Virus record (IMG/VR): IMGVR_UViG_3300017991_001587
Location: 1-50,031 of that record
Reading direction: 5' to 3' (one strand)
Source: a virus
Taxonomy: Duplodnaviria > Caudoviricetes
Length of the DNA stretch: 50,031 nt
Shown: positions 8,502 to 46,652 of the stretch, piece by piece
Layout: each line of letters starts with the position of its first letter
How positions within the stretch are numbered: the stretch's first letter is position 1
Translations under genes and position numbers: made by a program
The notes under the pieces: generated by a model
Database searches by the model: none
Told to the model about the DNA's origin: nothing
The model's input: the letters and a program-made list of their open reading frames with translations, nothing else

Positions 8502-8522
8502 ATGGATGATCGATCGTCCATG
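8502..8522. repeat. Palindromic element copy 1 (variant ATGGATGATCGATCGTCCATG)
   Basis: Direct reading; TGGATG sits 17 nt before CACGCT-N6-ATG(8538). Confidence 0.95.
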
Positions 8523-8537
8523 TGGCACGCTTGATCC

Positions 8538-9041
8538 ATGCCCGACAAGACGATCAAGCTCGAAGAAGCCGCCGCATGGATCGACGGCGAGTTGAAGCCC
8601 GACATGAAGGCGGCGGCGGTGCGCGGGCTCGTGTCGGCGGCGGCGGCGCTTGTGCAAGAGATCACGCTTCGGATCATTCCAACGAAGTCGCCGCAACCCG
8701 TCGACCGGGGCGTGTTCCGGGCGGGTTGGCGGTCGTACCCCGAAGCCGATGGAGCGACGATCGAGAACACCGAACCGCATGCGGCGTTCATTGAATGGGG
8801 CGTTCGCGGCGGTAGCGTGAAGGTCGGCTTCCCTTTGGTCAACGCGTTGACCGAATGGGTCCAGCGCAAGGGCATCGCATCGGGTGCCGAAGCGCGGTCG
8901 GCGGCGTACGGGATCGCGCTCGCCGCGCAACGTCGCGGGTTCTTCAACGGCGGCACGGGCTTTCGCATTCTCGAAGATGCAATGAAGCTCGCACCCGACA
9001 TCATTCGGCGCGAAGTGGAGAACGAGCTTCGTCGCGTGTAG
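8538..9041 (+). CDS. Neck/tail completion protein (HK97 gp10-like)
   Basis: PVDRGVFRAGW and NTEPHAAFIEWG motifs, typical of the PVDTG..LR.S / YA.YVEFG family. Confidence 0.7.
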   Translation: MPDKTIKLEEAAAWIDGELKPDMKAAAVRGLVSAAAALVQEITLRIIPTKSPQPVDRGVFRAGWRSYPEADGATIENTEPHAAFIEWGVRGGSVKVGFPLVNALTEWVQRKGIASGAEARSAAYGIALAAQRRGFFNGGTGFRILEDAMKLAPDIIRREVENELRRV

Positions 9042-9050
9042 GCTTGACGC

Positions 9051-9758
9051 ATGGTGAAGGCATCCGAATTGATCGACTCGCCTATCGGGCAAGTGTATCC
9101 GCCCCGACCCGAGCAACCGTTGCCCGACTTCGATGCCCGCACGCATGCACTTCGGCGGCTTCGCGAGTTCTTGTCGGTGCTCGACCTTCACCGCACGAAC
9201 ACGAAGGGCGCACCGCCGATCAAGTATCGGATCCCGATCGCGAACATCCATCTCGAACAACCCGACTCGGTTGTCGATCTCAAGTTTCCCGGCGTCGCGT
9301 TCCTTCCGGGGCGGGCGACGCATGAAGCGTACGGGCTCGGCGCGCCCGACATCTGCGAAGGCACGCTCGACGTGTACGGCGTCGGCACCGCGCTCGCGGT
9401 GCTCTCGGATCACGTCGAGCAATTCACGGTCGAGCTATGGGCGAGCGGGCGAGCCGAGCGGCGGTCGATGGTCGCGGGCATCTCGACCGCGATGCGTTCG
9501 AGCGCGACGTCGTATTCGATTCGGCTCACGTTGCCGAGCTACTTCAACCAAGTCGCGAGCTTCGCTCTCGACTCGACACAATACATCGACGATCCCGACG
9601 TCGTTCGCGGTCGTCGTCGTGCGCATCTTCTGGTCACGATGTCGGTGCCCGAAGTCGCGCTTGTGAACGTCGAGCGACTTCACCCGTTGCTCGCGGTAGA
9701 AGTGACCGAAGGCGCGTTGCCGACCATGGTCGCGACCGTCAAGGCATGGGACGACTAG
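9051..9758 (+). CDS. Putative tail terminator
   Basis: Position just before the sheath; leaderless TAGGCT-N6-ATG. Confidence 0.55.
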   Translation: MVKASELIDSPIGQVYPPRPEQPLPDFDARTHALRRLREFLSVLDLHRTNTKGAPPIKYRIPIANIHLEQPDSVVDLKFPGVAFLPGRATHEAYGLGAPDICEGTLDVYGVGTALAVLSDHVEQFTVELWASGRAERRSMVAGISTAMRSSATSYSIRLTLPSYFNQVASFALDSTQYIDDPDVVRGRRRAHLLVTMSVPEVALVNVERLHPLLAVEVTEGALPTMVATVKAWDD

Positions 9759-9784
9759 ACGATGGCAAGCGGGCAAGCTACCCT
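9756..9784 (+). promoter_or_regulatory. Sheath promoter TAGACG-N17-TACCCT
   Basis: Exact spacing, upstream of a GGAGG RBS. Confidence 0.5.
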
Positions 9785-9832
9785 CGCGAGAACGAGAACC
9801 CGCCCGCATGATCGACGACTTGGAGGCTAACA

Positions 9833-12046
9833 ATGGCTGGATTCATCCGACGCTTCACCTTCGACCCCGGTCTTGAAGAGCTACTCGCGATCGAAGGGGT
9901 CGTGATCATTGACCGGGAACCGCCCGCCGCGTTGACGGGCGTCGGAAGCGGGCTCGTGACAATCGTCGGTGAATTCGACGACGGCGACTTCGACACTCCG
10001 TACGAAGTCGCGTCGAGCGCCGACTTCCTAGCGAATTGGGGCGGGTTCGGGTTCACATACGACGGGATCGTGTCGAACAACCCGTGCGCTCGGTCGCGAC
10101 TTGCCGATGGGGCGGTGTCGCCCGAGTTCTGGAATGGCAACGGGTTCGTCGCGCTTGCGAAGAAGAAGTTCCGTCAACTTGTCGTCGTGCGGGTCGACAC
10201 GAGCGTCGGTGAGATCCAGTTTCGGCGGCTTGCTTGCGTGAAGGGCAACCCCGACTTCACGTTCGATCTCGAACCCGCGCAAGCTCTTGTGTTCAACAAC
10301 GGCGGCGGCAACGCGACGGCAACCTTCACGGCGGCGGCGGCGTTGATCGCTTCCGGCGTCGGCGTGTACCCGACGCTCTTCGCGGGCGGCGAATCGATCA
10401 CGCTCGACTTCGACGGAACCGAAGTCACGGTCGTCTTTGAAGCGGCGGATCAATCGCAAGCTCAGATGATCACGCGAGTGAACACGACGCTCGGATATAC
10501 CGCGTTCGTCGATGCGGGCGGCGGCGTGACCAACTTCGTCGGGCGGCAACGTGGAACGGGCGGCTCGGTGCAAGTCGTCGCGATCGACGCAGCGGTCGCG
10601 GCGGCAACGGGCTTCGCGGCGGGCGCGGCGGTGCCCGGAACCGGCAACGTCGCGAACATCGACCAAGTGACCGAATCCGAAGTGTCGGCGCGTTGCATCG
10701 CGGCGGCGGCGGCGGCGGTGCCGCCGTTCGTCGTGCGGGTCGACCGCGACGAAAACGAGAAGCTTGCCTTGTGCGAGACGTCGACGCCCCTAACGGGCGT
10801 GATCAACATCGTGTCGAACACGGCGGTCGGGCTCGGCTTCGTTGCTGGTCAAACGGGCTCGGCGGCAAGCGGCGAAGACGGCACGATCCCGGCGGGCACA
10901 CGGGTTCGGAACGCGGGCGGAACCGAATGGGTCACGATGCAAACGATCGCGGTCACGGCGGCGAATGCCGGTCCCTACACCGCGCCGATCCGCCATGCGA
11001 CCGACGACACGACCGGGGCGGCGGCGCTCGCGGGCGCGATCAACGTGCTTCCCTTCGCGGTTCCGATCACGGGCATGTTCGCGGTGATCAACCCGCTTCC
11101 GACCACGGCGGCGTTGACCGACAATCAGATCGACGTGGCATATCAAGCGGCGCTCGACACGACGAAGAACCTTTCGAGCATCGTGAAGAAAACGAACATC
11201 GTCGTGTCGGCTCGGTCGTCGAACGCGATCCGAACGGCACTTCGCACGAACGCGATCGAAGCTTCGGGTGAAGGGGCATACGGGCGAATGGCGGTGATTC
11301 GCCCGCCCTTGAACACGCCCCGAGCAACGGCGAAGTCGACGACCGTTCAACCGGGCGTCGGGGCGTACCGTTCGCAACGCGTCGTGTACGCGTACCCCGG
11401 CGTCTCGGTCCAGATTCCGCAGATCGCTGCGGTAGGAACGAGCGGCGGCGCGGGCTTCACCGACGACGGCGTGATCGACGTCGGCTTCGACACATGGGTC
11501 GCGTCGGTCATGTCGCAACTTCCGCCCGAAGAAAACCCCGGTCAAGAGACCGACTTTATGACCGAGGTTCTCGGCGTCGAGTCGGGTAACGCCGACGTCC
11601 AGAACTTGACGATCGGTGACTATCGCGCCTTCAAGTCGAGCGGGATCGCCGCATACCGGAACGACGAAGGCACGTCGATCATTCAATCGGGGATCACGAG
11701 CGTCGACCCCGCGACGAACCCGAGCTTGAAGAACATTGCTCGGCAACGCATGGCTGACTTTATCACCGACACGCTCGCGATCCGGTTGAACACCTTCTCG
11801 AAGAAGCTCGCGACGCGAACGCGGCGGGCGCTCGTGATCGGTGAGATGGACGCCTTCATGCGGCAACTTGTCGACGACGAACGGATCGATAGCTTCTTGA
11901 TCGACGCGAAGTCGGGCAACACGACGACGACGCTCGCGGCGGGCTTGTTCCGCATCATCTTGAAGGTCAAGACGATCCCGTCGATGGACGTGATCGTGAT
12001 CGACGCGACGGTCGGTGAAACGGTCACGATCTCGCAAGCGGCGTAG
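9833..12046 (+). CDS. Contractile tail sheath protein
   Basis: 737 aa; C-terminal sheath-like region (IQSGITS..KNIARQRMADFI..IDSFLID); followed by a tube gene. Confidence 0.85.
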   Translation: MAGFIRRFTFDPGLEELLAIEGVVIIDREPPAALTGVGSGLVTIVGEFDDGDFDTPYEVASSADFLANWGGFGFTYDGIVSNNPCARSRLADGAVSPEFWNGNGFVALAKKKFRQLVVVRVDTSVGEIQFRRLACVKGNPDFTFDLEPAQALVFNNGGGNATATFTAAAALIASGVGVYPTLFAGGESITLDFDGTEVTVVFEAADQSQAQMITRVNTTLGYTAFVDAGGGVTNFVGRQRGTGGSVQVVAIDAAVAAATGFAAGAAVPGTGNVANIDQVTESEVSARCIAAAAAAVPPFVVRVDRDENEKLALCETSTPLTGVINIVSNTAVGLGFVAGQTGSAASGEDGTIPAGTRVRNAGGTEWVTMQTIAVTAANAGPYTAPIRHATDDTTGAAALAGAINVLPFAVPITGMFAVINPLPTTAALTDNQIDVAYQAALDTTKNLSSIVKKTNIVVSARSSNAIRTALRTNAIEASGEGAYGRMAVIRPPLNTPRATAKSTTVQPGVGAYRSQRVVYAYPGVSVQIPQIAAVGTSGGAGFTDDGVIDVGFDTWVASVMSQLPPEENPGQETDFMTEVLGVESGNADVQNLTIGDYRAFKSSGIAAYRNDEGTSIIQSGITSVDPATNPSLKNIARQRMADFITDTLAIRLNTFSKKLATRTRRALVIGEMDAFMRQLVDDERIDSFLIDAKSGNTTTTLAAGLFRIILKVKTIPSMDVIVIDATVGETVTISQAA

Positions 12047-12716
12047 GCTTCGGATGAATCGGCTCGCGATTCCTTTTCATCGGCGGCGTGAAGAGCGCAT
12101 CGCGCTCGGTCATGCCTTGCGCTCGCCTCCGATGATAGGTCGACCATGCGATCCCGCTTTCCGATATCCATTCCCCTATCCGTTTGGTCACGCCGTCGAT
12201 CGTGACGTATCGGTTTCCCCTTCGGTTCCGGTTTTGTTGGTGCGATGTCGTCCAACGAACGTTTCCCGGTTCGTACGCCCCTTCGTTGTCGATGCGGTCG
12301 ATCGAATGCTTCGGGGAAGGTCGACGTCCTACGTCGGCAAGGAAGTCTTCAAACGATTCTCGCCATCGGTCGCACACGGTGATCCCGCGCGCCCCGTAGT
12401 TTCGGAAATCTCGATGGTTCGGGTTGTGACAACGCGAGATCATCGAACCCCATGTTCGATATTCCGAGGAAGGCGGGGATTTGCTGTTGGCAGATTCCCC
12501 GTGTCGACGCGAGGCTTTACCGAGCTTCGCGCCAAGTTCGCGGCGAAGGCATCCGCACGACTTCGTTCGACCACTATTGAGCATCTCGGCAAGAACGATC
12601 GTCTCGTTCCCGCATTCACAACGACATCGCCAACGCGTGCGCTTGTCCGTCGATTGGTGTCGTGCGAGGATTGTCAAACGTCCAACAACTTGCCCTTGAA
12701 GGTTGTGCAATCTCAT
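12024..12716 (-). CDS. Free-standing HNH homing endonuclease, antisense insertion
   Basis: WRCRCECG..SCGC, YRTWGSMISRC, YGARGITVCDRW, SIDRIDNEGAYEPGNVRW motifs; more AT-rich than the flanks. Confidence 0.85.
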   Translation of the reverse strand: MRLHNLQGQVVGRLTILARHQSTDKRTRWRCRCECGNETIVLAEMLNSGRTKSCGCLRRELGAKLGKASRRHGESANSKSPPSSEYRTWGSMISRCHNPNHRDFRNYGARGITVCDRWRESFEDFLADVGRRPSPKHSIDRIDNEGAYEPGNVRWTTSHQQNRNRRGNRYVTIDGVTKRIGEWISESGIAWSTYHRRRAQGMTERDALFTPPMKRNREPIHPKPTPLARS

Positions 12717-12751
12717 GGGCCAATTGATGCACAGAATTGGATAGGTGACAA

Positions 12752-13198
12752 GTGGCAGATTCCCGCTTGAAGGGGCAAGAAGTCGAAGTTCGCGTGACGC
12801 GGGCGGGTTCGGTCGAGAACGCAATCGCGGCGATCGGAACGTTCAACGATCAAGTCATGCTCGAAACGAAGCAAGACGGCTTTCTCGGTGAGTTGACCGA
12901 CCGCTTCGACGACATCATGCGCGGGTATGGGTTCGATCTCGAATTCCAGGTCTCGGAAGCCGCATGGATCGACTTCCAAGAAGCGATGATCGCAAGGTCG
13001 CAACGCTTGACGCCCGATGTCGTGTTCAACGTGATCCGCACCGACTTCTACTCGAACGGCGACACGTTGATCATTACATACATGGACGTAAAGTTCGGCG
13101 CGCAACCGACGACGATCGCGTCGCGCGGCGACTTCGTGAAGGTGAAGCTCGAAGGCAAGTGCAGCCAGCGAAGCGTGCAAAAGAATTCGCTTCCGTGA
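12752..13198 (+). CDS. Tail tube protein
   Basis: 148 aa beta-rich protein after the sheath; GTG start with AGGTG RBS. Confidence 0.75.
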   Translation: MADSRLKGQEVEVRVTRAGSVENAIAAIGTFNDQVMLETKQDGFLGELTDRFDDIMRGYGFDLEFQVSEAAWIDFQEAMIARSQRLTPDVVFNVIRTDFYSNGDTLIITYMDVKFGAQPTTIASRGDFVKVKLEGKCSQRSVQKNSLP

Positions 13199-13297
13199 CG
13201 CGAAGCGGTTCGAGATGAGTCGCGCGGCGCGATGGCGCGCTCGACGGGGCGTGTCGCCTCCCTCGCGTTCGCGCGGCTCGCTTTCTAACGGGAGGAT

Positions 13298-13873
13298 ATG
13301 AACGTGAGCAACGACAACATGAACACCGAAGCCGAAGTGAACGAGCAACCGTTGACGGTCGACGACGAAGTTGATCCCGGTCGGCAAGCCGACGACGCGG
13401 CAACCGAAGCGAAGGCGAAGAAGGATAAAACCTTCGCCCCGCTTCCCGAAGCACGGGCGGGCGGTGCGCCCGCATGGGTGGAGATCCCGGCGAACTTCAA
13501 GTTCCCGCGCGGTCGACAAGTCGCCTTCGTGCGGTTCCGTGCATCGTGGACCGACACGCCCGAGAAGGGCGAGCGACAAGCGATCCTTTGGGCGTTGACC
13601 GACGCCGACGAAAAGGTCGCGCTCTCGCGTGCCATGGGCGACGTGAATCGAGCCGCGAACGAGCTTGCAAAGCAGATGGTTCGGGCGGTCGACGGGCACG
13701 TTGCCGATTGGTCGGGCGAGCCCGGACCCGCGAACATCGACCGTTGGTGGAACGAGATCGGCGCTCGGTGTCGCGGCATGCTCGTTCGGATCTTCACGCA
13801 ACTTCATGTCTTGAACGAGGAAGAGCGCAAGGATTTTTTCGAGTCTTGCATCGCGCTTCGCACGGCGGGCTAA
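13298..13873 (+). CDS. Tail assembly chaperone (gpG-like)
   Basis: Between tube and tape measure; GGAGG RBS; slippery site near the 3' end. Confidence 0.75.
   Translation: MNVSNDNMNTEAEVNEQPLTVDDEVDPGRQADDAATEAKAKKDKTFAPLPEARAGGAPAWVEIPANFKFPRGRQVAFVRFRASWTDTPEKGERQAILWALTDADEKVALSRAMGDVNRAANELAKQMVRAVDGHVADWSGEPGPANIDRWWNEIGARCRGMLVRIFTQLHVLNEEERKDFFESCIALRTAG
13834..13840 (+). other. Programmed -1 frameshift site T TTT TTC
   Basis: In-frame X XXY YYZ heptamer; the -1 frame stays open to 14175. Confidence 0.8.
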
Positions 13874-14175
13874 GGCTCGACGACGAAGGGTTGACGGTCG
13901 ATCCCGCCGAAGCGGGCAAGATGCTTCGGGTGCTCGGGTTGTTCACCGGAAGCGATGCGGACGGGGCGCGCTTCATGGCGCATACCGCGATCATGTTCGA
14001 CGCGCACAAGCTCGAAGCGTTGCGGCGATGGCGTGCCGCATACTTGGGGCGATACATGCACCAACAGATCACGACGATCGCGAACATCGAAGTCGTCGAG
14101 CTTTGGGCGTACGTTCGCGAGATCACCGAGTTGATCAAGACCGAGACGCCGACTGTCGGAATGAACGATCCATGA
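13840..14175 (+). CDS. Frameshift extension of the tail assembly chaperone (gpGT-like C-terminal part)
   Basis: The -1 frame ORF (RVLHRASHGG...RWRAAYLGRYMHQ...MNDP) ends just before the tape measure. Confidence 0.7.
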   Translation, partial: RVLHRASHGGLRLDDEGLTVDPAEAGKMLRVLGLFTGSDADGARFMAHTAIMFDAHKLEALRRWRAAYLGRYMHQQITTIANIEVVELWAYVREITELIKTETPTVGMNDP

Positions 14176-14180
14176 TCGAC

Positions 14181-14201
14181 ATGGATGATCGATCATCCAT
14201 G
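14181..14201. repeat. Palindromic element copy 2
   Basis: Perfect ATGGATGATCGATCATCCATG, just upstream of TTGCCG-N18-TACCCT-N6-ATG(14243). Confidence 0.95.
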
Positions 14202-14242
14202 GGCGCTTGCCGCAACCGTAGGTCGGGCGCTACCCTTGCGGC

Positions 14243-16204: not shown

Positions 16205-16260
16205 CTCGCGAGCGCACCGGATCAATGGTAGCTTCAACGAAACGACGCGAGGTAAGAACG

Positions 16261-17013: not shown

Positions 17014-17037
17014 CCAACCGAAAGGCGGGCTCGTTCC

Positions 17038-18288: not shown

Positions 18289-18292
18289 CATC

Positions 18293-21078: not shown

Positions 21079-21089
21079 CCCGATGCCGC

Positions 21090-21183
21090 CCCGGAACCGC
21101 CCCGAGAACGCATCGGCGGGCATGGGGTCGACCCGAAGGGCATCGGGGAAGGTCGAGCCCTTCTCGGGGCGTTCTCGGGCGAC
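21090..21183. repeat. Bipartite element copy 3: CCCGGAACCGC-CCCGAGAA-N52-TTCTCGGGGCGTTCTCGGGCGAC
   Basis: Interior 21109-21160 is 52 nt; lies between convergent genes. Confidence 0.85.
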
Positions 21184-21185
21184 CC

Positions 21186-21432: not shown

Positions 21433-21453
21433 ATGGATGATCGATCATCCATG
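21433..21453. repeat. Palindromic element copy 3, between divergent promoters
   Basis: Perfect copy; TGGATG-N17-TATGTT-N7-ATG(21470) on +, and CGCGGCATGAT on -. Confidence 0.95.
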
Positions 21454-21469: not shown

Positions 21470-21763
21470 ATGGGAGCCGCACCGCCACCCGACGCACCGA
21501 CCCCGGCAGAACAAGCCGCCGTTTCCGCCGACGCATCGTTCGAGCCTTCACCGGGCGGTGCGAGCTTGTGCGGGTTCGCGTTGCCGAGCTTCACCTTCTC
21601 GCTCGCGTTCAACTTCAAGTTCCCGCCCTTCGACTTTCCGCCGACGTTCAACTTCGCGATCGGGCTCAATTGCGACTTGTCGAACCCGATCGACGCGAGC
21701 TTCTCGTTCGGCGGCGGGCGCGTCGCGACAAGCGACCCCGACCCCTTTGAAGAGGATTTGTGA
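21470..21763 (+). CDS. Small Phe/Pro-rich hypothetical protein
   Basis: ORF with a leaderless-type start; F-x-F repeats. Confidence 0.55.
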   Translation: MGAAPPPDAPTPAEQAAVSADASFEPSPGGASLCGFALPSFTFSLAFNFKFPPFDFPPTFNFAIGLNCDLSNPIDASFSFGGGRVATSDPDPFEEDL

Positions 21764-21765
21764 CC

Positions 21766-22239
21766 ATGAAGGATCAACCGGCGTTGACGGTATGGGCGAA
21801 GGTCGCGAAGGGCGGCAAGGGCTCGCCCGATCAAGAGCGCGACGACTCGGGGCGGTTCGGCTCGGGCTCGGGCAAGTCGAAGAAGGAAGCCGCGCCGAAA
21901 GCTTCGGAAGCGACAAGTGCGGATGATGTCGACGACACGACGCTGGGCGAAACGCTATCCGAACGCGGTGTCACGAGCGAGACGGGGCGAATGGATCGGC
22001 TTGGCGTGATCCGCGAAGCGTTCCCGAAGATGGGTATGAGCGATCACATGCGGTTGAATCGCCGCGCGACCGAAGCGCTCGGCGGCGTCGAAGAAAAACG
22101 AGCATGGGAAGTCGGGCGCGAGCAACGCGGCGGGCATCCGGGCGGTGTCGCCCCGGTCGGTGAGATCGGAACACGGGCGAGCAACCGGGCGAGCCGAACG
22201 GCGGCGCGGGCGGGCATGCGCAAGGGTCGTCGGCGGTAG
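21766..22239 (+). CDS. Hypothetical protein with PALTVWA and RDDSGRF motifs
   Basis: GAGG RBS; motifs shared with other small proteins. Confidence 0.65.
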   Translation: MKDQPALTVWAKVAKGGKGSPDQERDDSGRFGSGSGKSKKEAAPKASEATSADDVDDTTLGETLSERGVTSETGRMDRLGVIREAFPKMGMSDHMRLNRRATEALGGVEEKRAWEVGREQRGGHPGGVAPVGEIGTRASNRASRTAARAGMRKGRRR

Positions 22240-22240: not shown

Positions 22241-23362
22241 ATGCGCACCTTGAAGCACCGAGAGCCCGAGCCGCTCGACGCCGCGTTCTTCGACCCGACC
22301 CTTCGCGCCCCCTTCCCGTGGTACGGCGGCAAGTCGAAAGCCGCGCCGATCATCTGGAAGGCAATGGGCGACGTGAAGAACTATGTCGAGCCCTTCGCGG
22401 GCTCGCTCGCGACGCTTCTCGCCCGACCGCACGCACCGAAGATCGAAACGATCAACGACAAGGATGCTTGGGTTGCGAACTTCTGGCGGGCGGTGCAAGC
22501 CGACCCCGATGCCGTTGCGGGCTTCGCAAACTGGCCGATCAACGAAGCCGACCTTTCGGCTCGGCACGTTTGGCTTGTGAACAAGCGAGCCGAGATCGCG
22601 GAACGCGTGACCGTCGACCCCGACTTCTTCGATCCGAAGGTCGCGGGCTGGTGGGTTTGGGGCGTGTGCATCTGGATCGGTGCGGGTTGGTGCGACGGGC
22701 GCGGTCCGTGGAACACCGACGACGGCAAGACATGGGTGAAGCGCCCGATCAACGGAAGCGATGCGCGGGGCATCAAGCATTCGATGCCGATGCTACAGAT
22801 CCCCGGTGGCGTGCATCGGTACACCGACAAGGGGTTGAACGATCGCGGGATCACGAAGGGCTTGCCCGATCTGATCAACCCGCGCGGCGTTCACCGACGC
22901 ACCGATCGCGGCGTGTCGCGGCAACTTCCCGAGCTTGGCAACTTCGGGCGCGGTGCCGCTCGCGACATGACAACCGAAACGCTTCACGCGTGGTTCTCGA
23001 CGTTGCGCGTGACTTGCGGCGATTGGAGTCGCGTGCTTTGCAAGACCGCAACCGTCGTTCATGGCACGACCGGCATCTTGCTCGACCCGCCGTACGATCA
23101 ACACGAAGGCACCGAAGGCTTGTATGCCGAGAAGGACATCGAAGGGTTGTCGGAAGCGGTCGGGGAATGGGCGATCGAGCATGGCGACGACAAGCGGCTT
23201 CGGATCGTGTTGTGCGGGTACGACGGAACCTTCGACCCGCCGCCCGGTTGGCGCACCATGCCATGGTTCAACGGGTCGTCGGTCGGTCGCGGTTCCGAGA
23301 AGGCATTGAAGGGTCGGCTTCGCGAACGACTTTGGATGTCGCCGCATTGCTTCGTCGTGTAG
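22241..23362 (+). CDS. DNA adenine methyltransferase (Dam/D12 class)
   Basis: PFPWYGGKS, YVEPFAGS, INDKD and LDPPY motifs. Confidence 0.9.
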   Translation: MRTLKHREPEPLDAAFFDPTLRAPFPWYGGKSKAAPIIWKAMGDVKNYVEPFAGSLATLLARPHAPKIETINDKDAWVANFWRAVQADPDAVAGFANWPINEADLSARHVWLVNKRAEIAERVTVDPDFFDPKVAGWWVWGVCIWIGAGWCDGRGPWNTDDGKTWVKRPINGSDARGIKHSMPMLQIPGGVHRYTDKGLNDRGITKGLPDLINPRGVHRRTDRGVSRQLPELGNFGRGAARDMTTETLHAWFSTLRVTCGDWSRVLCKTATVVHGTTGILLDPPYDQHEGTEGLYAEKDIEGLSEAVGEWAIEHGDDKRLRIVLCGYDGTFDPPPGWRTMPWFNGSSVGRGSEKALKGRLRERLWMSPHCFVV

Positions 23363-27823: not shown

Positions 27824-27844
27824 ATGGATGATCGATCATCCATG
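27824..27844. repeat. Palindromic element copy 4
   Basis: Perfect copy 5 nt after a stop codon, upstream of TATCGT-N6-ATG(27892). Confidence 0.95.
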
Positions 27845-32314: not shown

Positions 32315-32408
32315 CCCGGAACCGGCCCGAGAAGGGCTCGACGCCTTCCGCCCTACCGCGAACCCCTATCCGACGCCCCGACGCGTTCTCGGGGCGTTCT
32401 CGGGCGAC
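32315..32408. repeat. Bipartite element copy 4 (same outer arms as copy 3, interior end-boxes in opposite orientation)
   Basis: CCCGGAACCGG-CCCGAGAA | 32334-32385 (52 nt) | TTCTCGGGGCGTTCTCGGGCGAC; fills the whole convergent intergenic gap. Confidence 0.85.
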
Positions 32409-33199
32409 TATGGGGCGGGCGTGAAGTAGGGCTCGAAGTAGGGGTTGTCCGTGGGAACGCCGAATGGGAAGCCTTCGGGCACAAGGGCGGCGTCGAGCCC
32501 GGAACACGAGCCTTCGCCATGGCGATCGGCGGCGACAAGGGCGGCGAAGGTGTCGAGCCGACCGGCAAGGGGGCGACCGGGCGGCGACTTCCCGAACGCC
32601 CATGTGCGCCCGTCGACGCCCCGTCGAAGTGTTTTCGTCGTTCCCCTTCCGCCATGGCGGGCGATCCCATCGGACCCGACGAAGAAGCCGCCATAGTCGA
32701 ACGATCGAACGACGTTGCCTTCGATCGACTCGATCACGAAGACGTGTTCGAGCCCGTATTCACCGATCATCCAAACGTCGCCCGGTCGCGTGTCGGCAAC
32801 GACCGAATCTCCCTTGCGATGCTTCGTCCAAGCCGATCCCGTCTCGGCGTGAAGCTTGATCAAGTTCCAACCTTGTTGCCAGCCCCATGCTTCCTTGCGG
32901 TTGATCCATCGAAGCGACTTGCGAACGTGCGCGTCGTCGTACAACACCGCCCCGCAAGCAAGCCAAGCCGCGAAGTGCGGAAGGTCGCCACACGACGAAT
33001 AGCAACGCCGCTTCCCGTTGATCAACCAGCAACCTTGCCGACCTTCGGTCACGCGCTCGAAGATCGGGTCGCCCTTTTGCCGCCCCTTCGACCCGTTGCA
33101 TGCGAAGCGGGCAAGCTCGACGAAGGCGGCACGAACGGCTTCTTCGTCGAGCGGTCCATCCAACGACTTCCGAAGGTGAACGCGGGTCAAGTTGATCAT
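32408..33199 (-). CDS. CHAP/NlpC-P60-like cysteine hydrolase, putative endolysin
   Basis: SSCGDLPHF...RPGDVWMIG...EHVFVIESIEG..VRSFDYG (Cys...PGD...His) pattern; adjacent to holin-like genes; leaderless TAGGCT-N6-ATG. Confidence 0.55.
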   Translation of the reverse strand: MINLTRVHLRKSLDGPLDEEAVRAAFVELARFACNGSKGRQKGDPIFERVTEGRQGCWLINGKRRCYSSCGDLPHFAAWLACGAVLYDDAHVRKSLRWINRKEAWGWQQGWNLIKLHAETGSAWTKHRKGDSVVADTRPGDVWMIGEYGLEHVFVIESIEGNVVRSFDYGGFFVGSDGIARHGGRGTTKTLRRGVDGRTWAFGKSPPGRPLAGRLDTFAALVAADRHGEGSCSGLDAALVPEGFPFGVPTDNPYFEPYFTPAP

Positions 33200-33347: not shown

Positions 33348-33368
33348 ATGGATGATCGATCGTCCATG
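33348..33368. repeat. Palindromic element copy 5 (variant ...GATCGTCCATG)
   Basis: In a divergent intergenic region directly before CATGAT-N6-ATG(33386). Confidence 0.95.
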
Positions 33369-35379: not shown

Positions 35380-35382
35380 TCC

Positions 35383-35868: not shown

Positions 35869-37379
35869 AACGACGGCGAAGCCAAGCGAACAAGCCACCC
35901 GAGAAGCCCGCCATGGATGATCGATCATCCATGAAGCCGAAGCCGAAGGTGAAGTTGAAGCCCGACAAGGGCGAGTCGGTCGATCTTCGGATCCCGCACG
36001 ACATCGTGAACGAACAAGTGATTCTCGCGGCGGCGATCGTCGACGTCGAAACATGCGATCGGTTGCTTCGACGGATTCCCGCTGATTCGCTCTTCGGGAA
36101 GGGTCACGCCGAAGCTTGGTCGATGCTTGCCGAGCTTCGGCGGCGCGGGCTCACCTACGACCCCGCGACCGTGCGCCAACTTTCCGGCGGTGCGATCGAC
36201 GTCGAGTATCTCGACGCGCTTGTCGTCGACCGACCCGCCGTGCCGCCGAACCTTTCGCACCATGTCGACGCGCTCGAATGGGATCGGGCTCGCATCGAAG
36301 CCGCGCGCGGTCCGCTCGGTTCGCTTCTCGACGCGGTTCGTGATCCGAGCGCCGACCCCGAACGCGTGCGGGCGCTCGCGGCGCAAGTGTCGAAGGCGTT
36401 CGACCGCACGGACCTTCGCTACCTTCGCGATCCCGATGAATTGGTCCGGTCGCAGATTGCCGAGATCCGCAAGCGGCAAAGCGGGGTTGCCCGGTTCTCG
36501 TACGGGGTCGAAGGGCTCGACGACTTCGACGACGGAACCCCGCGAATGATTCCGGGCACCGCGCCGAAGCAAGTCACGGTGATCACCGGGCTCTCGGGCG
36601 GCGGCAAGACAACCTTCACTGCACACGTTGCGCTCGGGCTAGCGAACGAAGGTCGAAAGGTGTTGTTCGGGGCATGGGAACAAGGAAGCGGGCTCACGTT
36701 GGAATTGATCGCGACGATCTCGCTCGGGTTGTCGCGGACAAGCTTGACGGTCGGTGACGTCGACGACTTGATGATCGACGATCTCGAAGCCGAGATGCGA
36801 CGGTTGTCGGAATGGATCCGGTTCTTCGAGATCCCCTTCGGGCGCAAGCAAGGCGAGAAGCGGTTGAACGATCGGGCGCTCGACACGATTCACGCATACA
36901 TTGTCGAGTCGGGTTGCGACGTGTTCATTGCCGACTTGTGGCGGCGGGCGCTTCGACAATTCGACCCCGACGAAGAAGAAGCGGCGTTGTACCGTCAACA
37001 ATCAATTGCGCAAGAGACGAACACGCATCACATATTGATTCACCAACAACGCTTGAAGGATGTCGAGACGCGAAGCGACAAGCAACCGACGCGGGAAGGG
37101 TTGAAGGGCTCGGGCGCATGGGTGGAGATGCCCGACACGATTCTCGGCATCCATCGCCCCGCGCTTTGGAAAGCGGTTGCCGACGATTCGATCCTTGCGC
37201 TTGTGTTGAAGCAACGACACGGGCAATGGCCACTAGCGGTTGAATTCGATTGGGTGCCGACGCACGGAACGATCCGGGGCGGTCGCGAGATCGAATACAC
37301 GCAACCCGGAAGCGAAGGCGAAGTCGACTCGTTCCTTGCCGAAGCGACAGTGAACAAGGGAAGGCGGCGAAGGCGATGA
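35865..37379 (+). CDS. dnaB: DnaB-like replicative helicase
   Basis: PHDIVNEQVILAA N-domain, GLSGGGKT Walker A, FIADL, GLKGSGAWVEMPD and VLKQRHG motifs. Confidence 0.9.
   Translation: MKRRRSQANKPPEKPAMDDRSSMKPKPKVKLKPDKGESVDLRIPHDIVNEQVILAAAIVDVETCDRLLRRIPADSLFGKGHAEAWSMLAELRRRGLTYDPATVRQLSGGAIDVEYLDALVVDRPAVPPNLSHHVDALEWDRARIEAARGPLGSLLDAVRDPSADPERVRALAAQVSKAFDRTDLRYLRDPDELVRSQIAEIRKRQSGVARFSYGVEGLDDFDDGTPRMIPGTAPKQVTVITGLSGGGKTTFTAHVALGLANEGRKVLFGAWEQGSGLTLELIATISLGLSRTSLTVGDVDDLMIDDLEAEMRRLSEWIRFFEIPFGRKQGEKRLNDRALDTIHAYIVESGCDVFIADLWRRALRQFDPDEEEAALYRQQSIAQETNTHHILIHQQRLKDVETRSDKQPTREGLKGSGAWVEMPDTILGIHRPALWKAVADDSILALVLKQRHGQWPLAVEFDWVPTHGTIRGGREIEYTQPGSEGEVDSFLAEATVNKGRRRRR
35913..35933. 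repeat. Palindromic element copy 6, in-frame (MDDRSSM) in the helicase N-terminal extension
   Basis: Direct reading. Confidence 0.95.
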
Positions 37380-38911: not shown

Positions 38912-39066
38912 ACGACGAAGTGAAAGCCGCCTTGATCGCATGGTGCGACACCATGAAGCCCGAAGAGATCGCCGCCGCCGTTCGAGCTTCCCCGAACGCC
39001 GAGCTTCTCGGTGATCCCGACACGGTTGCGAAGTACCTTGTCGCCATGGCGACCGGGGTCGTATAG
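38908..39066 (+). CDS. Small hypothetical protein (52 aa, MNDEVKAALIAW...)
   Basis: ATGA overlap, AAGG RBS; below the ORF-track cutoff. Confidence 0.5.
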   Translation: MNDEVKAALIAWCDTMKPEEIAAAVRASPNAELLGDPDTVAKYLVAMATGVV

Positions 39067-39085
39067 CCCGCGCCATGATGCGAGC

Positions 39086-39382
39086 ATGACCTATCGTCCA
39101 CACGAGATCGGATCCATGATCCGAACGCGTCCGAAGGAAGCCGCCCGACGTGTGCTCGCGATCGTTCGCAGGAACAACGGCAACGTCGCCGCATGCGCCG
39201 ACGAAGCGGGCACCGATCGGCGTACCTTCCAACGATGGATCGCCGCGCTCGACGACGAAGGCTTCGAGCTTCGCATCGCGGTCGAGCAAGCTCGGGCGGA
39301 AGCCCGCAACCGGGCGGGCAAGGGGGCGGGCTGGTATCGTAAGGCTTCGCCCCGTTCGACGACCGATTCACCCGTCGATTGA
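39086..39382 (+). CDS. Fis-like HTH protein (paralog of 38582)
   Basis: RRNNGNVAACADEAGTDRRTFQRWI; leaderless CATGAT-N6-ATG. Confidence 0.7.
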   Translation: MTYRPHEIGSMIRTRPKEAARRVLAIVRRNNGNVAACADEAGTDRRTFQRWIAALDDEGFELRIAVEQARAEARNRAGKGAGWYRKASPRSTTDSPVD

Positions 39383-39433
39383 CCCGAGAAAACAAGGGGG
39401 TTAGAGAAAACGACATCGGGCGTCGCTTCGGGG

Positions 39434-39475
39434 TTGATTGTGCGGCTTGCTTGCCCCACAATTCTAGTCCACGCT
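39434..39475 (+). promoter_or_regulatory. Tandem sigma70-like promoters TTGATT-N17-CACAAT and TTGCTT-N17-CACGCT
   Basis: Exact spacing in a relatively AT-rich intergenic region. Confidence 0.55.
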
Positions 39476-39529
39476 CGAAACACAACGCACACGACGGAAC
39501 ACGGACGAAGGAACGAAAGGAACACGACG

Positions 39530-41185: not shown

Positions 41186-41191
41186 CGGTAG

Positions 41192-41243
41192 GAAGGCGCG
41201 GGGAAGGTGCGGAGAGGCACCGCAACCTTCCCCGCGCGCCTTC
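41192..41243 (+). terminator. Long imperfect hairpin after the DUF932-like gene
   Basis: GAAGGCGCGGGGAAGGTGCGG / CCGCAACCTTCCCCGCGCGCCTTC; no U-tract. Confidence 0.5.
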
Positions 41244-41315
41244 GAGCCCGACAAGGCACCGTCGAGCCCGAAGGCGCGCGAAGGCGCGACACGCGACGAC
41301 GAAAGGAACCCAACG

Positions 41316-41960
41316 ATGCGACGCCGGAAGCACACGACGACAACCCTTGAAGTGCGGCTTCACGCCTTGCGCTCGGGTCGTGTGAGCTTCACCGAGTTCT
41401 CGCGCGAGACCGCCGCCGACTGGTCGCGGATCGCCCGATACGTGCTCGGTCGATGGCAAGTGCCCGATGCCGTTGAAGTGATCGACGTCGAGCAAGAGTT
41501 GATCATCGCGGCTTGGCGGGCGTGCTTGGAATGGGATCCTTCTCGCGGCGTGGCGATCGACGTTCATGTTCGATGGCGGGCGATCACGGCGGCGAAGAAG
41601 TGGTTGCATCGGCAACGCGGCGCGCTTCGGCTCGACGACCGAAGCCCTTCGCGACATCCGGTGAGCTTCACGGCGCTCGGAATGGATCGCGGCGGTATGG
41701 ATGATCGATCATCCATGGCGGAACAAGTCGAAGAAGTCGCTCGGCTTCGGCTTCTGGGATCAACGCTCGACAAGCTCGCCCCGCAAGATGCCGCTTGCGT
41801 GCTTGCACTTGTCGTCGCGTCGGGCGATGTCGCGGAAGCGGCGCGGTTGGTAAACGGCAACACGAAGTTGAAGCTTCGGCTTCGGCTTGGATCCGAACAC
41901 GATGCTCGGCGGGCGATCTGTCGGGTGCTCGAACAAGTCGCGCGGCATGGCGCGGCATGA
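41316..41960 (+). CDS. Phage-encoded sigma70-family factor (regions 2 and 4)
   Basis: DVEQELIIAAWRACLEWDPSRG (region 2) and LDKLAPQD...DVAEAARLV (region 4-like). Confidence 0.7.
   Translation: MRRRKHTTTTLEVRLHALRSGRVSFTEFSRETAADWSRIARYVLGRWQVPDAVEVIDVEQELIIAAWRACLEWDPSRGVAIDVHVRWRAITAAKKWLHRQRGALRLDDRSPSRHPVSFTALGMDRGGMDDRSSMAEQVEEVARLRLLGSTLDKLAPQDAACVLALVVASGDVAEAARLVNGNTKLKLRLRLGSEHDARRAICRVLEQVARHGAA
41697..41717. repeat. Palindromic element copy 7, in-frame (MDDRSSM) in the sigma factor linker
   Basis: Direct reading. Confidence 0.95.
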
Positions 41961-41977
41961 TGCGCATGGAGGAAAGC

Positions 41978-43390
41978 ATGGCAACTTCAACGACGACAAC
42001 GAAGGCAACGAAGGCGAACGACGGCAAGGTGTCGGGCGTGATCATGGCGGTCGTCGACCCGAAGATCGTCGACAAGTATCTCGAACGGTACAAGGTCGCG
42101 GTGCCTTCGGGCGCTTCGATCGACGACCGGGTTCGGTTGCTCGCACAAGCGAGCCGCGCGAACACGCCCCGCGAGAAGCTTGCCGACTGCGACAAGTGCA
42201 AGGGCGACTCGGATATCACGCTTCCCGAATGCCCGTATTGCGGCGAAGGCGGAACCGAAGAGATGCCGATGGGGAACGAACCGGCGGGAACGAGCGGCAA
42301 GTCGACGCCGAAGCCCGAGCCGAAGCCCGAGCCGAAGCCCGAGCCCGCGAAGCCCGCCAAGGGGTCGCAGAAGCCGAGCAAGGGCAAGAAGCGGTCGGAA
42401 GCGGCGAAGGGCAACGGCAAGTCGACGTCGGAAGCGACGCAAGCGCTGGCGAACAAGCTCGGCGTCGAAGTCGCCCCGGAACACGAGCCCGACGCCAAGG
42501 GGTCCAGCAAGCCCGAGAACGAGTCGAAGCCCGCCAAGGGGTCGAAGCCCGCCAAGGGGTCGAAGCCCGAGCCGAAGGCGACGAAGCCCGCCAAGGAGTC
42601 GCAGAAGCCGAGCAAGGGGGCGACGAAGCCCGAGTCGAAGGATGCCGAAGTGATCGACGCGACCGCCGAGATCGTCGTCGCGCAACCGACCGGGAAGATC
42701 ACGACGTCGGCGGATCTCGACGATGCGGTGTGTGGGGTCCACGAAGCCAAGCGCGCGGCGGTCGTGTCCCACTGGGTGCTCGGCAACGCGATCCTTCGGA
42801 CCTTCGAGAACGACGCTTGGAAGCAACGCCGCAACGACAAGGGCGCGCCCGTCTATCGCGGCTTCAAGCAATTCTGCGAAGCCGAGTTGAACATGTCGTC
42901 GGGGTACGCGTACAAGCTCATGGATATCGCGGCGAGCTTCTCGGCGGATGACGTCGCGAAGATCGGCGTCGCGAAGCTCGGGATTGTGCTTCGCCTTCCC
43001 GCCAAGCAACGCACCGATCTTCTTGACGAAGTGCGCGACGGCATGCCGCTTCGGGAAGTTGCCGACAAGGTGCGGGCGCTCGCGAACGGTTTGCCCCAAC
43101 GCGACGACGGGCAAGGGAGGCGCAAGAACGTCGGCGGCGGCAAGGGCAAGGGCTCGGGCACCGTGTCGACCCCTTCGACGCCCGCCGCCGTTCTCACAAC
43201 GACGCACAAGACGAAGCGCACGACGATCAAGCTCGTGAAGGCGGCGGATTCCGAGAAGCGCGCCCGCAAGATGGCCGACAAGCCGATCGGCGTCGAGATG
43301 ACGTTGAACGGGATCGAGATCCGATACACGCTCGGCACCGACGCGCAAGGCAACATGATCTTGATCGTCGACCGCTCGCGAGCGACGTGA
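41978..43390 (+). CDS. Putative DNA-binding protein: zinc ribbon, KPAKG/PE repeats, DUF3102-like helical domain
   Basis: GGAGG RBS; CDKC..CPYCG; WVLGNAIL...FKQFCEAELNMSSGYAYKLMDIA. Confidence 0.6.
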   Translation: MATSTTTTKATKANDGKVSGVIMAVVDPKIVDKYLERYKVAVPSGASIDDRVRLLAQASRANTPREKLADCDKCKGDSDITLPECPYCGEGGTEEMPMGNEPAGTSGKSTPKPEPKPEPKPEPAKPAKGSQKPSKGKKRSEAAKGNGKSTSEATQALANKLGVEVAPEHEPDAKGSSKPENESKPAKGSKPAKGSKPEPKATKPAKESQKPSKGATKPESKDAEVIDATAEIVVAQPTGKITTSADLDDAVCGVHEAKRAAVVSHWVLGNAILRTFENDAWKQRRNDKGAPVYRGFKQFCEAELNMSSGYAYKLMDIAASFSADDVAKIGVAKLGIVLRLPAKQRTDLLDEVRDGMPLREVADKVRALANGLPQRDDGQGRRKNVGGGKGKGSGTVSTPSTPAAVLTTTHKTKRTTIKLVKAADSEKRARKMADKPIGVEMTLNGIEIRYTLGTDAQGNMILIVDRSRAT

Positions 43391-43393
43391 TCC

Positions 43394-45907
43394 ATGCGGC
43401 GATACGTCAACGCCTTCTGGCGCGGCGGCTCGATTCTCGCCTATTCCCGCAACGACGAAGGCGAGATCGAGCGTCGTGCCTTTCCCGCCGAACATTCCTT
43501 CTTCGTTCGCACCGCCGATCTCGACCGCATCGGTCCGAACGGGCAATCGCTCGGTCGGGTGCTTCGGGCGTCGCGCTTGCTCGTAGGGATCTCGAATGAA
43601 GGCGAGTATTCGCGCATCCGTTGGAAGTACGAGCGGGCGCGGGGAAGCCGCGAACCGAATCACCTTCTCGCGGCGAAGTGGGTCGAGCGCGAATTCGAGA
43701 TCACGACCTATGAAGCCGACATCGGTCCGCTTCGCCGTTGGGCGACCGACCACAAGATCGAGATCGACAAGCCGACCCGAGCCTTCTTCGACATCGAAAC
43801 GGATTCCCGCGTTCCGTTTTCGCGCAAGACCGATGCCCGGATACTTGCCTTCGCGGTCGTCGGTGAGAACGGCGAAGTCGACAAGGGGGTCTTGACCGAA
43901 GAGACCGACGAAGCCGAACGCGAGCTTCTCGTTCACATGTGGAAAGCGATCGCTAAGTACGAGTCGATCCTTGCGTGGAACGGCGACCGCTTCGACTTCC
44001 CGATGATCGAAGCCCGCACCGCGAACGCCGGATTGCGGGTCGAGATGCGTCGGTGGCTATGGCTTGATCACTTGTCCGTCTATCGGCGGTTGAACGTCGC
44101 CGCCGCATCGGGCGATGAAAAGCAATCCATGGCGCTCGACTCGGTTGCGTTCAACGTGCTCGGTGAAGGCAAGCTCGCGGGCATGACGGGCGAAAAGTCG
44201 TACGACGAATGGCGGGCGAACCCGAAGCGGCTTCTCGAATACTGCGTTCGAGACGCCGACCTTATGCGGCGCATTGAAGAGAAAACGGGCTTCGTCGCGT
44301 TGCTTCAATCGTTGTGCGAAGCGTGCCACGTATTCCCCGACTCGCATGGATTGCACCCTACCGCGCAAGTCGAAGGCTTCCTAATGCGGCTCGGTCTCGA
44401 ACGCGAACACCGCTTCCCGACGTGGCATGGATTCGAGGATTCCGAGGAGTTCAAGGGCGCATTCGTGCTCGACCCCAAGACACGCGGGATCGAGCGGAAC
44501 GTTCACGTTGCCGACTTCTCGAAGTTGTACCCGTCGATCATTCTTACGTGGAACATGAGCCCGGAAACGTATCGCCCGAACGTGCGGCTTGTCGAAGACA
44601 TCGGCTTTCGCCCGAGCTACTTGTCGCACCTTCCGCCCAAGACCTTTCCCCTTCCCGAAGGGCATTGCGTCGCGGCATACACCGACGCGGTATTCGCGAA
44701 CGAGCCGCGCGGGTTGCTCGCGGTCGCGCTCGAAGAGATGATTCGGCTTCGCAAACATTGGAACAAGCGCAAGGCGAGCTTGCCGCCGGGAACGCCGGAA
44801 TGGGTCGAAGCCGACCGGAAGTCGACCGCGTACAAGGTCGCCGCGAATTCGTTTTATGGCGTGGTCGGGTCGCCCTTCTCGCGGTTCTTCGTGCGCGACG
44901 TTGCCGAAGCGGTCACGCAATGCGGGCAATGGTTGATCAAGGAAACGATCAAGGCGGCGGAAGCTCGCGACATGCGCGTCGTGTACGGCGACACCGATTC
45001 GATCTTCGTCGTCGGGGCGAGCCGCACCGACTTCGCCGCCTTCGTCGACTGGTGCAACGCCGAGCTATACCCGAGCTTGATCCGGTCGAAGTCGTGTTCG
45101 CGCAACGAAGTCGAGCTTGCATACGAGAAGGCGTTCGAGCGCGTTGTGATGACAAGCGCGAAGCGGTATGCGGGGCGGTATCTCCACTATAAGGGAACCG
45201 AAGCAACGGAGGATTCCGAGCCCGAGATCAAAGGGCTCGAATACAAGCGCGGCGACGTGCCGAAGCTCGCCCGTGCGTTGCAATATGAAGCGATCAAGCT
45301 CTTGCTCGCGGGCGACGACCCGCCCGGAATCGAACCCTTCGTCGAGCTTCTCGACGCTTGGAAGAGCAAGGTGCTCGAAGGCGACATCGACGCCGACGCG
45401 GTGATCCAGTCGAAGCGGTTGTCGAAGCCGCTTGCGCACTATGCCCGACGCAAGAAGAAAGACGGCGAGTATGCCGCCGAGCCGCCGCACGTTGCGGTTG
45501 CTCGGGTATTGAAGGAACGGGGCGAAGATGTCGGTGAAGGCGTCAAGATCGAGTATTACGTCGCAGACGCGAGCGGCGATGGGTTGCAATGCAAGCCCGC
45601 CGTCGACTGGACCGGCGACTTCGATCGCCATTACGTTTGGGAAGTGCTCGTGTTCCCGCCGACGCGGCGCTTCCTTGCGGCGGCGTACCCCGACGCCGAC
45701 TGGTCGCCATGGGAACGAACGCGCCCGAACCGGAAGTTCAACCCGGATCAAGCGACGCTCGGGCTTGACGCCCCGAAGGTCGCGTCGAAGCGGGTGAAGC
45801 GGTCGAAGGGGGCGGAACCGAAGCCCGCCAAGGGGCGGAAGAAGCGAAGTCAAGCGGTACAACCGACGTTGTTCGACATGGGAGGCAACGATGCGACGAC
45901 GAAGTGA
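43394..45907 (+). CDS. polB: Family B DNA polymerase with 3'-5' exonuclease
   Basis: FDIET, WNGDRFDFP, YCVRDA, DFSKLYPSII, KVAANSFYG, YGDTDS and KRYAG motifs. Confidence 0.97.
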   Translation: MRRYVNAFWRGGSILAYSRNDEGEIERRAFPAEHSFFVRTADLDRIGPNGQSLGRVLRASRLLVGISNEGEYSRIRWKYERARGSREPNHLLAAKWVEREFEITTYEADIGPLRRWATDHKIEIDKPTRAFFDIETDSRVPFSRKTDARILAFAVVGENGEVDKGVLTEETDEAERELLVHMWKAIAKYESILAWNGDRFDFPMIEARTANAGLRVEMRRWLWLDHLSVYRRLNVAAASGDEKQSMALDSVAFNVLGEGKLAGMTGEKSYDEWRANPKRLLEYCVRDADLMRRIEEKTGFVALLQSLCEACHVFPDSHGLHPTAQVEGFLMRLGLEREHRFPTWHGFEDSEEFKGAFVLDPKTRGIERNVHVADFSKLYPSIILTWNMSPETYRPNVRLVEDIGFRPSYLSHLPPKTFPLPEGHCVAAYTDAVFANEPRGLLAVALEEMIRLRKHWNKRKASLPPGTPEWVEADRKSTAYKVAANSFYGVVGSPFSRFFVRDVAEAVTQCGQWLIKETIKAAEARDMRVVYGDTDSIFVVGASRTDFAAFVDWCNAELYPSLIRSKSCSRNEVELAYEKAFERVVMTSAKRYAGRYLHYKGTEATEDSEPEIKGLEYKRGDVPKLARALQYEAIKLLLAGDDPPGIEPFVELLDAWKSKVLEGDIDADAVIQSKRLSKPLAHYARRKKKDGEYAAEPPHVAVARVLKERGEDVGEGVKIEYYVADASGDGLQCKPAVDWTGDFDRHYVWEVLVFPPTRRFLAAAYPDADWSPWERTRPNRKFNPDQATLGLDAPKVASKRVKRSKGAEPKPAKGRKKRSQAVQPTLFDMGGNDATTK

Positions 45908-46652
45908 AGTGAAGCAAGCAACGGCGGCGGCACAAGCGCCCGAGAACGAGCCCGAGCCAGTCAAGGCACCCGAACCCGAGCCCGAGCCCGCGAAGCCCGC
46001 CAAGGGGCGGAAACGGGGCGGCAACGGGGCGAAGGCGGCGGCACCGAAGCCCGAGCCCGCGAAGCCCGAGTCCGGTCGGGATACGATCTCGGCACCGCCG
46101 CCCGACATGGATGATCGATCATCCATGCTCGCCCGTCGACGGGCGCAAGTCGCCGCCGACTTGGAGAACCTTGTGCTTGCCGAAGGCACGTCGAAGATCG
46201 TCGAGCGGATCTTCGAGATCGACGTATGGTCGACATACGAGCGGCTTGAAGCCGAGCTTCGCATCGGGGAACCCGGCAACCGGGATCGGATCACGCTCGT
46301 GAACGCGCTCGACAACGCGCAAGAGAACGCCCGACAAGCACACGCGATCTTCGTGTCGGCAAAGGTTGCCGTCGACCGCTATGAAGCCGACGCGGTTGTT
46401 CTCGCGGTGAGCATGCGCGAACAAGCGAGCGCCGAGCTTGAAGCCGAAAAGGATCGGGGCGAGCGACGCAAGGCGATCACCGACGCCGACGTGACGTCGA
46501 AGATCGCGGCGCTCTTCCCCGACGAATGGCGGGCGCTCGAAGAGGAAAGGGCGAAGGCTCGGCGCACGGTCGCGAATCTCGAACGCTTTGCCGACTTGTG
46601 GAGCAAGCGGGTCCGAACGCTCGAAGTATTGCTCGAATCGGTGCGGGCATGA
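45891..46652 (+). CDS. Coiled-coil protein, possibly UvsY-like recombination mediator
   Basis: GGAGG RBS; KAITDADVTSKI...LWSKRVRTL pattern; clustered with SSB-like and RecA-like genes. Confidence 0.5.
   Translation: MRRRSEVKQATAAAQAPENEPEPVKAPEPEPEPAKPAKGRKRGGNGAKAAAPKPEPAKPESGRDTISAPPPDMDDRSSMLARRRAQVAADLENLVLAEGTSKIVERIFEIDVWSTYERLEAELRIGEPGNRDRITLVNALDNAQENARQAHAIFVSAKVAVDRYEADAVVLAVSMREQASAELEAEKDRGERRKAITDADVTSKIAALFPDEWRALEEERAKARRTVANLERFADLWSKRVRTLEVLLESVRA
46107..46127. repeat. Palindromic element copy 8, in-frame (MDDRSSM)
   Basis: Direct reading; at the boundary of the disordered and helical parts. Confidence 0.95.

Follow-up and report, generated by a model that had tools for sequence, protein, structure and literature searches.

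We identified a 20-bp palindromic site that recurs about every 5 to 6 kb along the genome of an uncultured phage, inside genes as well as between them, and that very probably forms a lattice of docking sites for a protein. The stretch of DNA analyzed here (the window) is one 50,031-base virus record, IMGVR_UViG_3300017991_001587, which is 55% complete; it is about half of an uncultured ~90-kb myovirus, and ~45% of the phage genome lies outside it. Genes in the window encode capsid, sheath, and baseplate proteins, an SF2 helicase, DnaB, a primase, a family-B polymerase, and RecA-like and SbcD-like proteins. The placement of the site in this phage and its relatives suggests that coverage of the genome probably matters more than gene-by-gene control. 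We give even chances to a specific form of this reading, in which a ParB-type protein without a clamp domain docks on the lattice and marks or organizes the phage DNA inside the cell, with local repression as a side use.

A motif scan of the window recovered all eight copies of the initial annotation at exactly their reported positions, on the + strand and with no mismatches, against 0.01 matches expected by chance (100 dinucleotide-shuffled sequences; a dyad test was also applied). Independent contigs span the copies at 8502, 14181, 33348, 35913, and 46107, so that an assembly or adapter origin, which the annotation had raised as a concern, does not explain them. In a strain that is ~97% identical, five differences fall among the 13 bases to the left of copy 8502 and none of the differences listed falls inside it. 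A near-identical contig, L003, extends the window by 4,731 bases and adds a ninth copy upstream (L003:3046). Short joints in these strain and contig comparisons were set aside as repeat matches. The flanking sequences differ between copies. The eight copies, listed without strand because the site is a palindrome, are as follows.

8502 to 8521: site 1, a one-base variant, covering the -35 position and spacer of the leaderless promoter predicted for gene 8538 (tail completion).
14181 to 14200: site 2, 42 nt ahead of gene 14243, whose position and size make it the likely tape measure gene.
21433 to 21452: site 3, over the -35 position and spacer of a predicted leaderless promoter with a start at 21470.
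27824 to 27843: site 4, 5 nt past a stop codon, its center 46 nt from a predicted -10 box.
33348 to 33367: site 5, the same one-base variant as at 8502, at the promoter predicted for the first gene of the replication block, which encodes the SF2 helicase.
35913 to 35932: site 6, overlapping the likely DnaB start codon (35931).
41697 to 41716: site 7, in frame within a linker of low conservation encoded by the sigma-70-region-2-like gene 41316-41960.
46107 to 46126: site 8, in frame within the low-complexity N-terminal part encoded by gene 45891-46652.

Six copies thus lie between genes or at a gene start, where the annotation had counted five as intergenic; the copy at 35913 is not deep inside a gene, and only 41697 (in the sigma-like gene) and 46107 are in-gene copies. 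The matching copy in the related record G002 likewise overlaps the likely DnaB start codon. In the linker of the sigma-like gene, the window, G002, and G003 each carry their own site sequence at the same position, and the protein follows the DNA. The annotation had also taken the element to be oriented, with one polarity and a trailing G in every copy, and this view is not supported: the trailing base of the ninth copy is A, a G comes after the final four core bases at 59 of 90 other + strand places in the window, and asymmetric variants occur in both orientations across the clade.

Scans with the capsid, the DNA-binding domain of a candidate reader described below, and the polymerase found 40, 5, and 63 loci, respectively. 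We took 29 related records, mainly by length, which with the extended window make 30 (G017 and G024 to base 100,000 only). The observation is clade-wide: a dispersed palindrome family is present in 26 of 30 records, each lineage having a different sequence. The 20-bp form occurs in 24 records, among them G013, in which conservation is limited to a 10- to 16-bp core. An additional base lies at the center of the G019 site, and G014 carries 8 copies of a 10-bp core. All 25 even-length lineage words have a C-G center (scored by eye), although shared ancestry makes these words non-independent. G011, G012, and G020 yielded no site family in a sensitive dyad search, and G016 carries a different, odd-centered repeat with 7 copies near the record ends. 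Sites cover the whole polymerase tree, in which G011, G013, and G014 form one branch with sites lost or shortened. Neither the candidate gene nor such a family was found at 33 more distant polymerase loci (L117 to L149, 4 to 22 kb each), four of which gave AT-rich noise. No cultured relative was found by DNA (first 25 kb of the window only) or by candidate protein in a phage collection, and similarity to cultured phages is only distant (capsid, 28 to 33% identity; polymerase, up to 30%). A search for hosts in GTDB genomes found no relative of the capsid or the candidate protein, and locus scans with the sigma-like protein and with the single candidate domain gave no matches. A literature search, with supplements and most subscription papers outside it, returned no match for this clade or for evenly spaced phage palindromes read by a ParB-type domain.

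Placement was analyzed in 24 records (G014 and G019 excluded; 19 treated as circular) with 368 copies, 5 to 34 per record. In 23 of 24 records, gap lengths vary less than the mean for random placement, significantly so (P < 0.05) in 17; for the window joined to L003, the coefficient of variation of the gaps is 0.34 versus 0.85 for random placement (P = 0.0035). The largest gap is 7 to 13 kb in 16 of the 24 records. Open reading frames (ORFs) hold 105 of the 368 copies versus 325 expected, and the other 263 are intergenic, with 102 of 262 starting no more than 10 nt past the preceding stop codon. Those copies that do fall in ORFs fill gaps: for 80 of 94, the distance to the closest intergenic copy exceeds that of the median coding position, versus a null mean of 47, and none of 2000 draws reached the observed value (the 11 loose matches of G013 were excluded). 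Because the in-gene copies fill large gaps in this way, selection appears to act on genome coverage. Among in-ORF copies of aligned core families, 24 of 26 lie in protein stretches of below-median conservation, and 45 of the 105 are in families common to at least 10 records, in tolerant loops. The phage uses intergenic space where possible and otherwise recodes tolerant protein loops. Three caveats apply. Gene calls in the records come from our own codon-usage caller; the records are related, so the pooled P value (2e-26) overstates independence; and G013, the sole exception of the 24, is less even than random.

Overall, the results support the broad proposal of the annotation, a genome-wide cis system read by a protein, and among its options the parS-like genome-organizing site. 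Another of those options, a pure operator network, would have one phage repressor or activator act at many promoters, with in-gene copies as transcription roadblocks; KorB-like or L5-stoperator-like roadblocks are a model for the latter. We consider this unlikely and only partly supported. The excess of intergenic copies fits it, and copies are loosely associated with promoters: a leaderless -10 box is found in 54 of 255 gaps with a copy versus 133 of 1090 gaps without one (odds ratio, 1.9; P = 4e-4). In the window, two copies lie over a -35 position, and the most conserved location of all is within 1 kb upstream of the SF2 helicase gene, where 17 of 23 records have a copy. However, a strict -10 box lies downstream of only 48 of the 263 intergenic copies, at distances of 8 to 76 nt with no value occurring more than 4 times. 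The 17-nt spacing to the -10 box noted in the annotation is present at 8502 and 21433 but is not a general rule, and the five promoter-near window copies have center-to-minus-10 distances of 14, 40, 14, 46, and 16 nt. Moreover, the genes next to copies change between lineages, site density is similar across regions (per 10 kb, 1.7 in replication, 1.5 in structural, and 2.2 in accessory DNA), and an operator network would not predict gap-filling by in-gene copies. In phages L5 and Bxb1, stoperators likewise repeat one word at many places in the genome, some of them in genes, but they are asymmetric and oriented to transcription. The present sites are symmetric, and where a variant breaks the symmetry it is found in either orientation (10 versus 7 in G025).

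Leaderless messages are suggested in this clade because many genes begin 6 to 7 nt after a -10-like hexamer. In the window, the starts at 5764, 8538, 9051, 14243, 23402, and 33386 have this arrangement and no ribosome-binding site, as do starts in relatives; these are likely leaderless transcripts.

Site variants also bear on whether the site acts as a folded strand. As an RNA or single-stranded DNA hairpin, it would be a terminator, a processing site, or a substrate of the phage SbcCD-like nuclease. Its perfect symmetry is compatible with this, both window variant copies keep a G.U pair, as the annotation had pointed out, and the phage encodes an SbcD-like protein. Across the clade, however, variants break pairing regardless of wobble (sense-strand pairs: 48 G.U, 39 A.C, and 99 other mismatches), the G025 site, with its one mismatch, is found in either orientation, a hairpin needs no identical sequence in every copy, and the window has no Rfam match. 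We therefore regard a hairpin signal as having only the slightest chance of being correct. Half-sites vary independently of each other, and since variants ignore wobble pairing and asymmetric ones occur in both orientations, two half-sites in duplex DNA are favored.

The annotation further suggested that the Dam-like methylase of the phage could modulate the site. This idea fared poorly: the Dam tetramer is present in only 7 of 25 lineage sites (by eye), and the D12-type methylase of the window has BLAST relatives in 1 of 29 other records. We also observed that a close strain lacks 309 bases (window 21881-22191) just before the D12-type methylase gene (22241-23362).

Sites go with the replication block and not the virion block, because site-bearing records G015, G017, G018, and G019 share with the window only the replication block, plus the sheath and large terminase. 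Only one replication-block gene was found to have a fold known to read palindromes.

41957 to 43390, + strand: candidate reader, 477 aa, with an N-terminal Cys-rich zinc-ribbon-like part, a Lys/Pro/Ala-rich linker, a ParB/KorB-like helical domain (DUF3102-like), and a C-terminal beta domain.
42755 to 43099, + strand: predicted ParB-type helix-turn-helix DNA-binding domain, residues about 267 to 381 (6s6h_B: Z score, 8.1; root mean square deviation, 3.1; 97 aligned).

We put the chance that this product reads the sites at somewhat better than even. A structure model of residues 249 to 477 (pLDDT [predicted local distance difference test], 89.7) has as its top structural matches ParB-parS (Z = 8.1), Spo0J (6.9), KorB (6.1), and SopB (4.6), and ParB-family chains are five of the top 11 matches. 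On the strength of this model, membership in the ParB/KorB/Noc DNA-binding domain family is favored but borderline. The protein matches DUF3102 proteins in BFVD (E = 5.6e-4), and PDB sequence searches with it gave no match. It is present in all 25 site-positive records that include the replication block, and among 15 families it shows the strongest partial correlation with site sequence once phylogeny is accounted for (r = 0.21, P = 0.005; P = 0.003 to 0.027 after removal of close pairs). The predicted fold and this tracking of the sites make the DUF3102-like protein the best candidate among the binders that the annotation had named. The ParB-like domain proposed there as a binder was not borne out, as ParB_N has no match in the candidate or elsewhere in the window; the CTP-clamp domain is absent. 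The candidate family comprises 975 clusters at E values up to 1e-10 and has no cultured member in the phage collection. We also observed that the sigma-70-region-2-like protein encoded just upstream (window 41316-41960; E = 5e-5) is fused to the candidate reader in G007.

Several results count against this assignment. For a helical domain, a Z score of 8.1 is borderline; Raf1 reaches 7.2, and the Foldseek E value is only 0.23. Two records without sites, G011 (97% complete) and G012 (a fragment), encode the candidate as well. Once corrected for 15 families, the Mantel P value is about 0.075. Among 2806 eight-column windows, the best covariation is in an SSB-like protein and the best candidate window has a family-wise P of 0.16; 10 of 129 windows of the same length from other core proteins do as well as the DNA-binding domain of the candidate, or better. 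Window-level covariation did not pick out the recognition helix, and no residue-to-base code is visible. A search for an autoregulatory site found no conserved copy just upstream of the candidate gene, and 8 of 21 records have one within 1 kb.

Some of these results would also fit a real lattice with another reader: an unrecognized phage protein, a host protein, or a stand-alone ParB-N protein of relatives. We think this improbable, though the candidate occurs without sites in two records, its covariation is weak, and much of the phage genome is outside the window. The stand-alone protein, of ~220 aa (G002 L050:5335-6018 and homologues), is common in the clade and encoded outside the window; it has a ParB N-terminal fold and a small C-terminal domain. 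Three site-positive records (G006, G015, and G017) gave no detectable copy of it, whereas site-less G011 has one. Stand-alone phage ParBs without a DNA-binding domain have another described role, as activators of DNA-modifying enzymes (excerpts of PMC13229309). We rejected it as a general reader because it tracks sites worse than the candidate does. The Fis-like proteins, which the annotation had listed as candidate binders, were rejected because their presence does not match that of the sites: in our gene calls, none follows the primase gene in site-positive G007, G015, G017, G018, and G025, and site-less G011 and G012 have one. No family found in at least six records is in all site-positive records and missing from G011. 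Fast site turnover between close phages (the window, G002, and G003) seems to fit a phage protein better than a host protein.

Even spacing would also suit a ratchet, and the sites could be signals for packaging or DNA entry, with the small terminase or an ejected protein as reader; in 8 records a copy follows a terminase-small-subunit-like gene. This reading is very unlikely, as site-bearing G015, G017, G018, and G019 lack the virion genes and any detectable small-subunit homologue, and the partial correlation with site sequence is -0.15 for the small and -0.06 for the large terminase subunit. The terminase-small-subunit-like protein was accordingly rejected as a general reader.

In the T4-type phages, PeSLs are promoter-terminator/stem-loop cassettes in variable regions and are tied to gene gain and loss. 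By analogy with these repeated cis elements, the present sites could reshuffle accessory genes, either as mobile promoter cassettes or as hot spots of recombination, and relative to L013 and L014, L008 and L007 do have one more copy past the capsid gene, accompanied by another cargo gene that has its own promoter. Such a role is highly improbable here. The present sites, unlike PeSLs, also lie inside core genes and are spread evenly over all modules; the in-ORF copies in widely shared families sit in tolerant loops, flanks differ from copy to copy, and no tyrosine recombinase was found in five complete genomes.

We propose the following model for the favored reading, a docking lattice for a clamp-less ParB-type protein. 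A two-fold symmetric phage protein would read the 20-bp palindrome as double-stranded DNA, and dimers would dock on every site. Its basic linker and zinc-ribbon part may then coat or bridge nearby DNA or recruit partners, such that every stretch would lie within about 5 kb of a bound protein. The promoter-overlapping copies at 8502, 21433, and 33348 may also repress locally as a secondary use. Because the CTP-binding domain is absent, the candidate would be a fixed anchor and not a sliding clamp. Plasmid-style prophage partition is unlikely, since five complete genomes yielded no tyrosine integrase and no ParA (no PF13614 match above the cutoff); among 3346 proteins there are six loose Walker-A-like motifs, none in a shared ParA family.

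By analogy, the lattice may work like KorB operators or Noc sites. It is not a member of ParABS: no ParA was found, the sites are evenly spread and not clustered near an origin, and the candidate, if it is the reader, has a Cys-rich zinc-ribbon-like N terminus in place of the CTPase domain. It does not belong to the KorB clamp systems either. In plasmid RK2, the KorB operators (OB) are palindromes dispersed over the replicon, some near promoters and some more than 1 kb away (excerpts of PMC11790492 and PMC3597684). The present sites resemble them in being dispersed palindromes near and far from promoters and in the ParB-family DNA-binding fold predicted for the reader. They differ in belonging to a phage in which no integrase or ParA was found, in a 20-bp site that changes by lineage, and in measurable gap-filling. 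KorB is a CTP-dependent clamp locked by KorA, whereas the candidate has no CTPase domain; no KorA partner is known, and none was searched for.

Consensus parS and the Noc site NBS center on C-G, and NBS is widespread on the chromosome with a structural role (excerpts of PMC7383237). The clade shares the C-G-centered palindrome and, by prediction, the ParB-type reading domain. In contrast, as the same excerpts describe, parS and NBS have 16-bp specificities conserved across species and parS clusters near the origin, whereas each lineage here has its own 20-bp word, evenly spread, with no ParA found. A phage precedent for many palindromic copies of one repeat, in and between genes, is the 17-bp repeat of Cluster O mycobacteriophages, present in dozens of near-invariant copies; its authors propose a dimeric binder and doubt a transcriptional role (section on the repeat in PMC4351075). 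That repeat has 7-bp arms and a variable 3-bp center, while the site described here has 10-bp arms, no spacer, and a fixed center. The Cluster O repeat is also concentrated in one region, and its section in PMC4351075 does not report even spacing, lineage turnover, or a ParB-type binder.

These results provide quantitative evidence that selection keeps a DNA signal at regular intervals, even at a cost to protein sequence, and they point to chromosome-scale organization or self-marking of viral DNA without a partition motor. As a tentative and rather doubtful extension, this may be a clade of lytic phages in which each carries a private 20-bp barcode at least every ~10 kb, and a clamp-less ParB-type reader labels the phage's own DNA as self during recombination-driven replication. 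The label might serve as a scaffold or as a shield from the phage's own SbcCD-like nuclease and from coinfecting relatives with another barcode, and the reader and all 5 to 34 copies would have been recoded together in each lineage. The 26 natural site variants and their matching candidate readers make cross-binding tests simple. Such tests would reveal how dozens of identical sites and the protein that reads them acquire a new specificity together, and they could supply orthogonal 20-bp DNA-binding pairs.

Several other features of the window and its relatives were observed. A second dispersed repeat of ~31 nt has three copies in the window, in both orientations (7808-7838, 21151-21181, and about 32379-32418). 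Second repeat families are clustered in accessory regions of G019, G013, G011, G016, and G007 and are likely early-promoter or operator motifs. The window avoids many six-base palindromes (several with 0 occurrences versus 20 to 47 expected), which suggests heavy restriction pressure from the host, and Dam-type tetramers are overrepresented. Positions 21 to 1025 encode the C-terminal part of a product whose full 820-aa ORF is in L003; it has a metallopeptidase-like domain (Pfam ATLF, E = 1e-7) and is likely a head-morphogenesis protein. The polymerase ORFs of L102 (G026) and L110 (G030) are 1280 and 1155 aa long, compared with the usual 830, and possibly contain inteins or inserts. Finally, G002 encodes a Tad2-like anti-Thoeris domain (L049:17582-17872; E = 4e-26).

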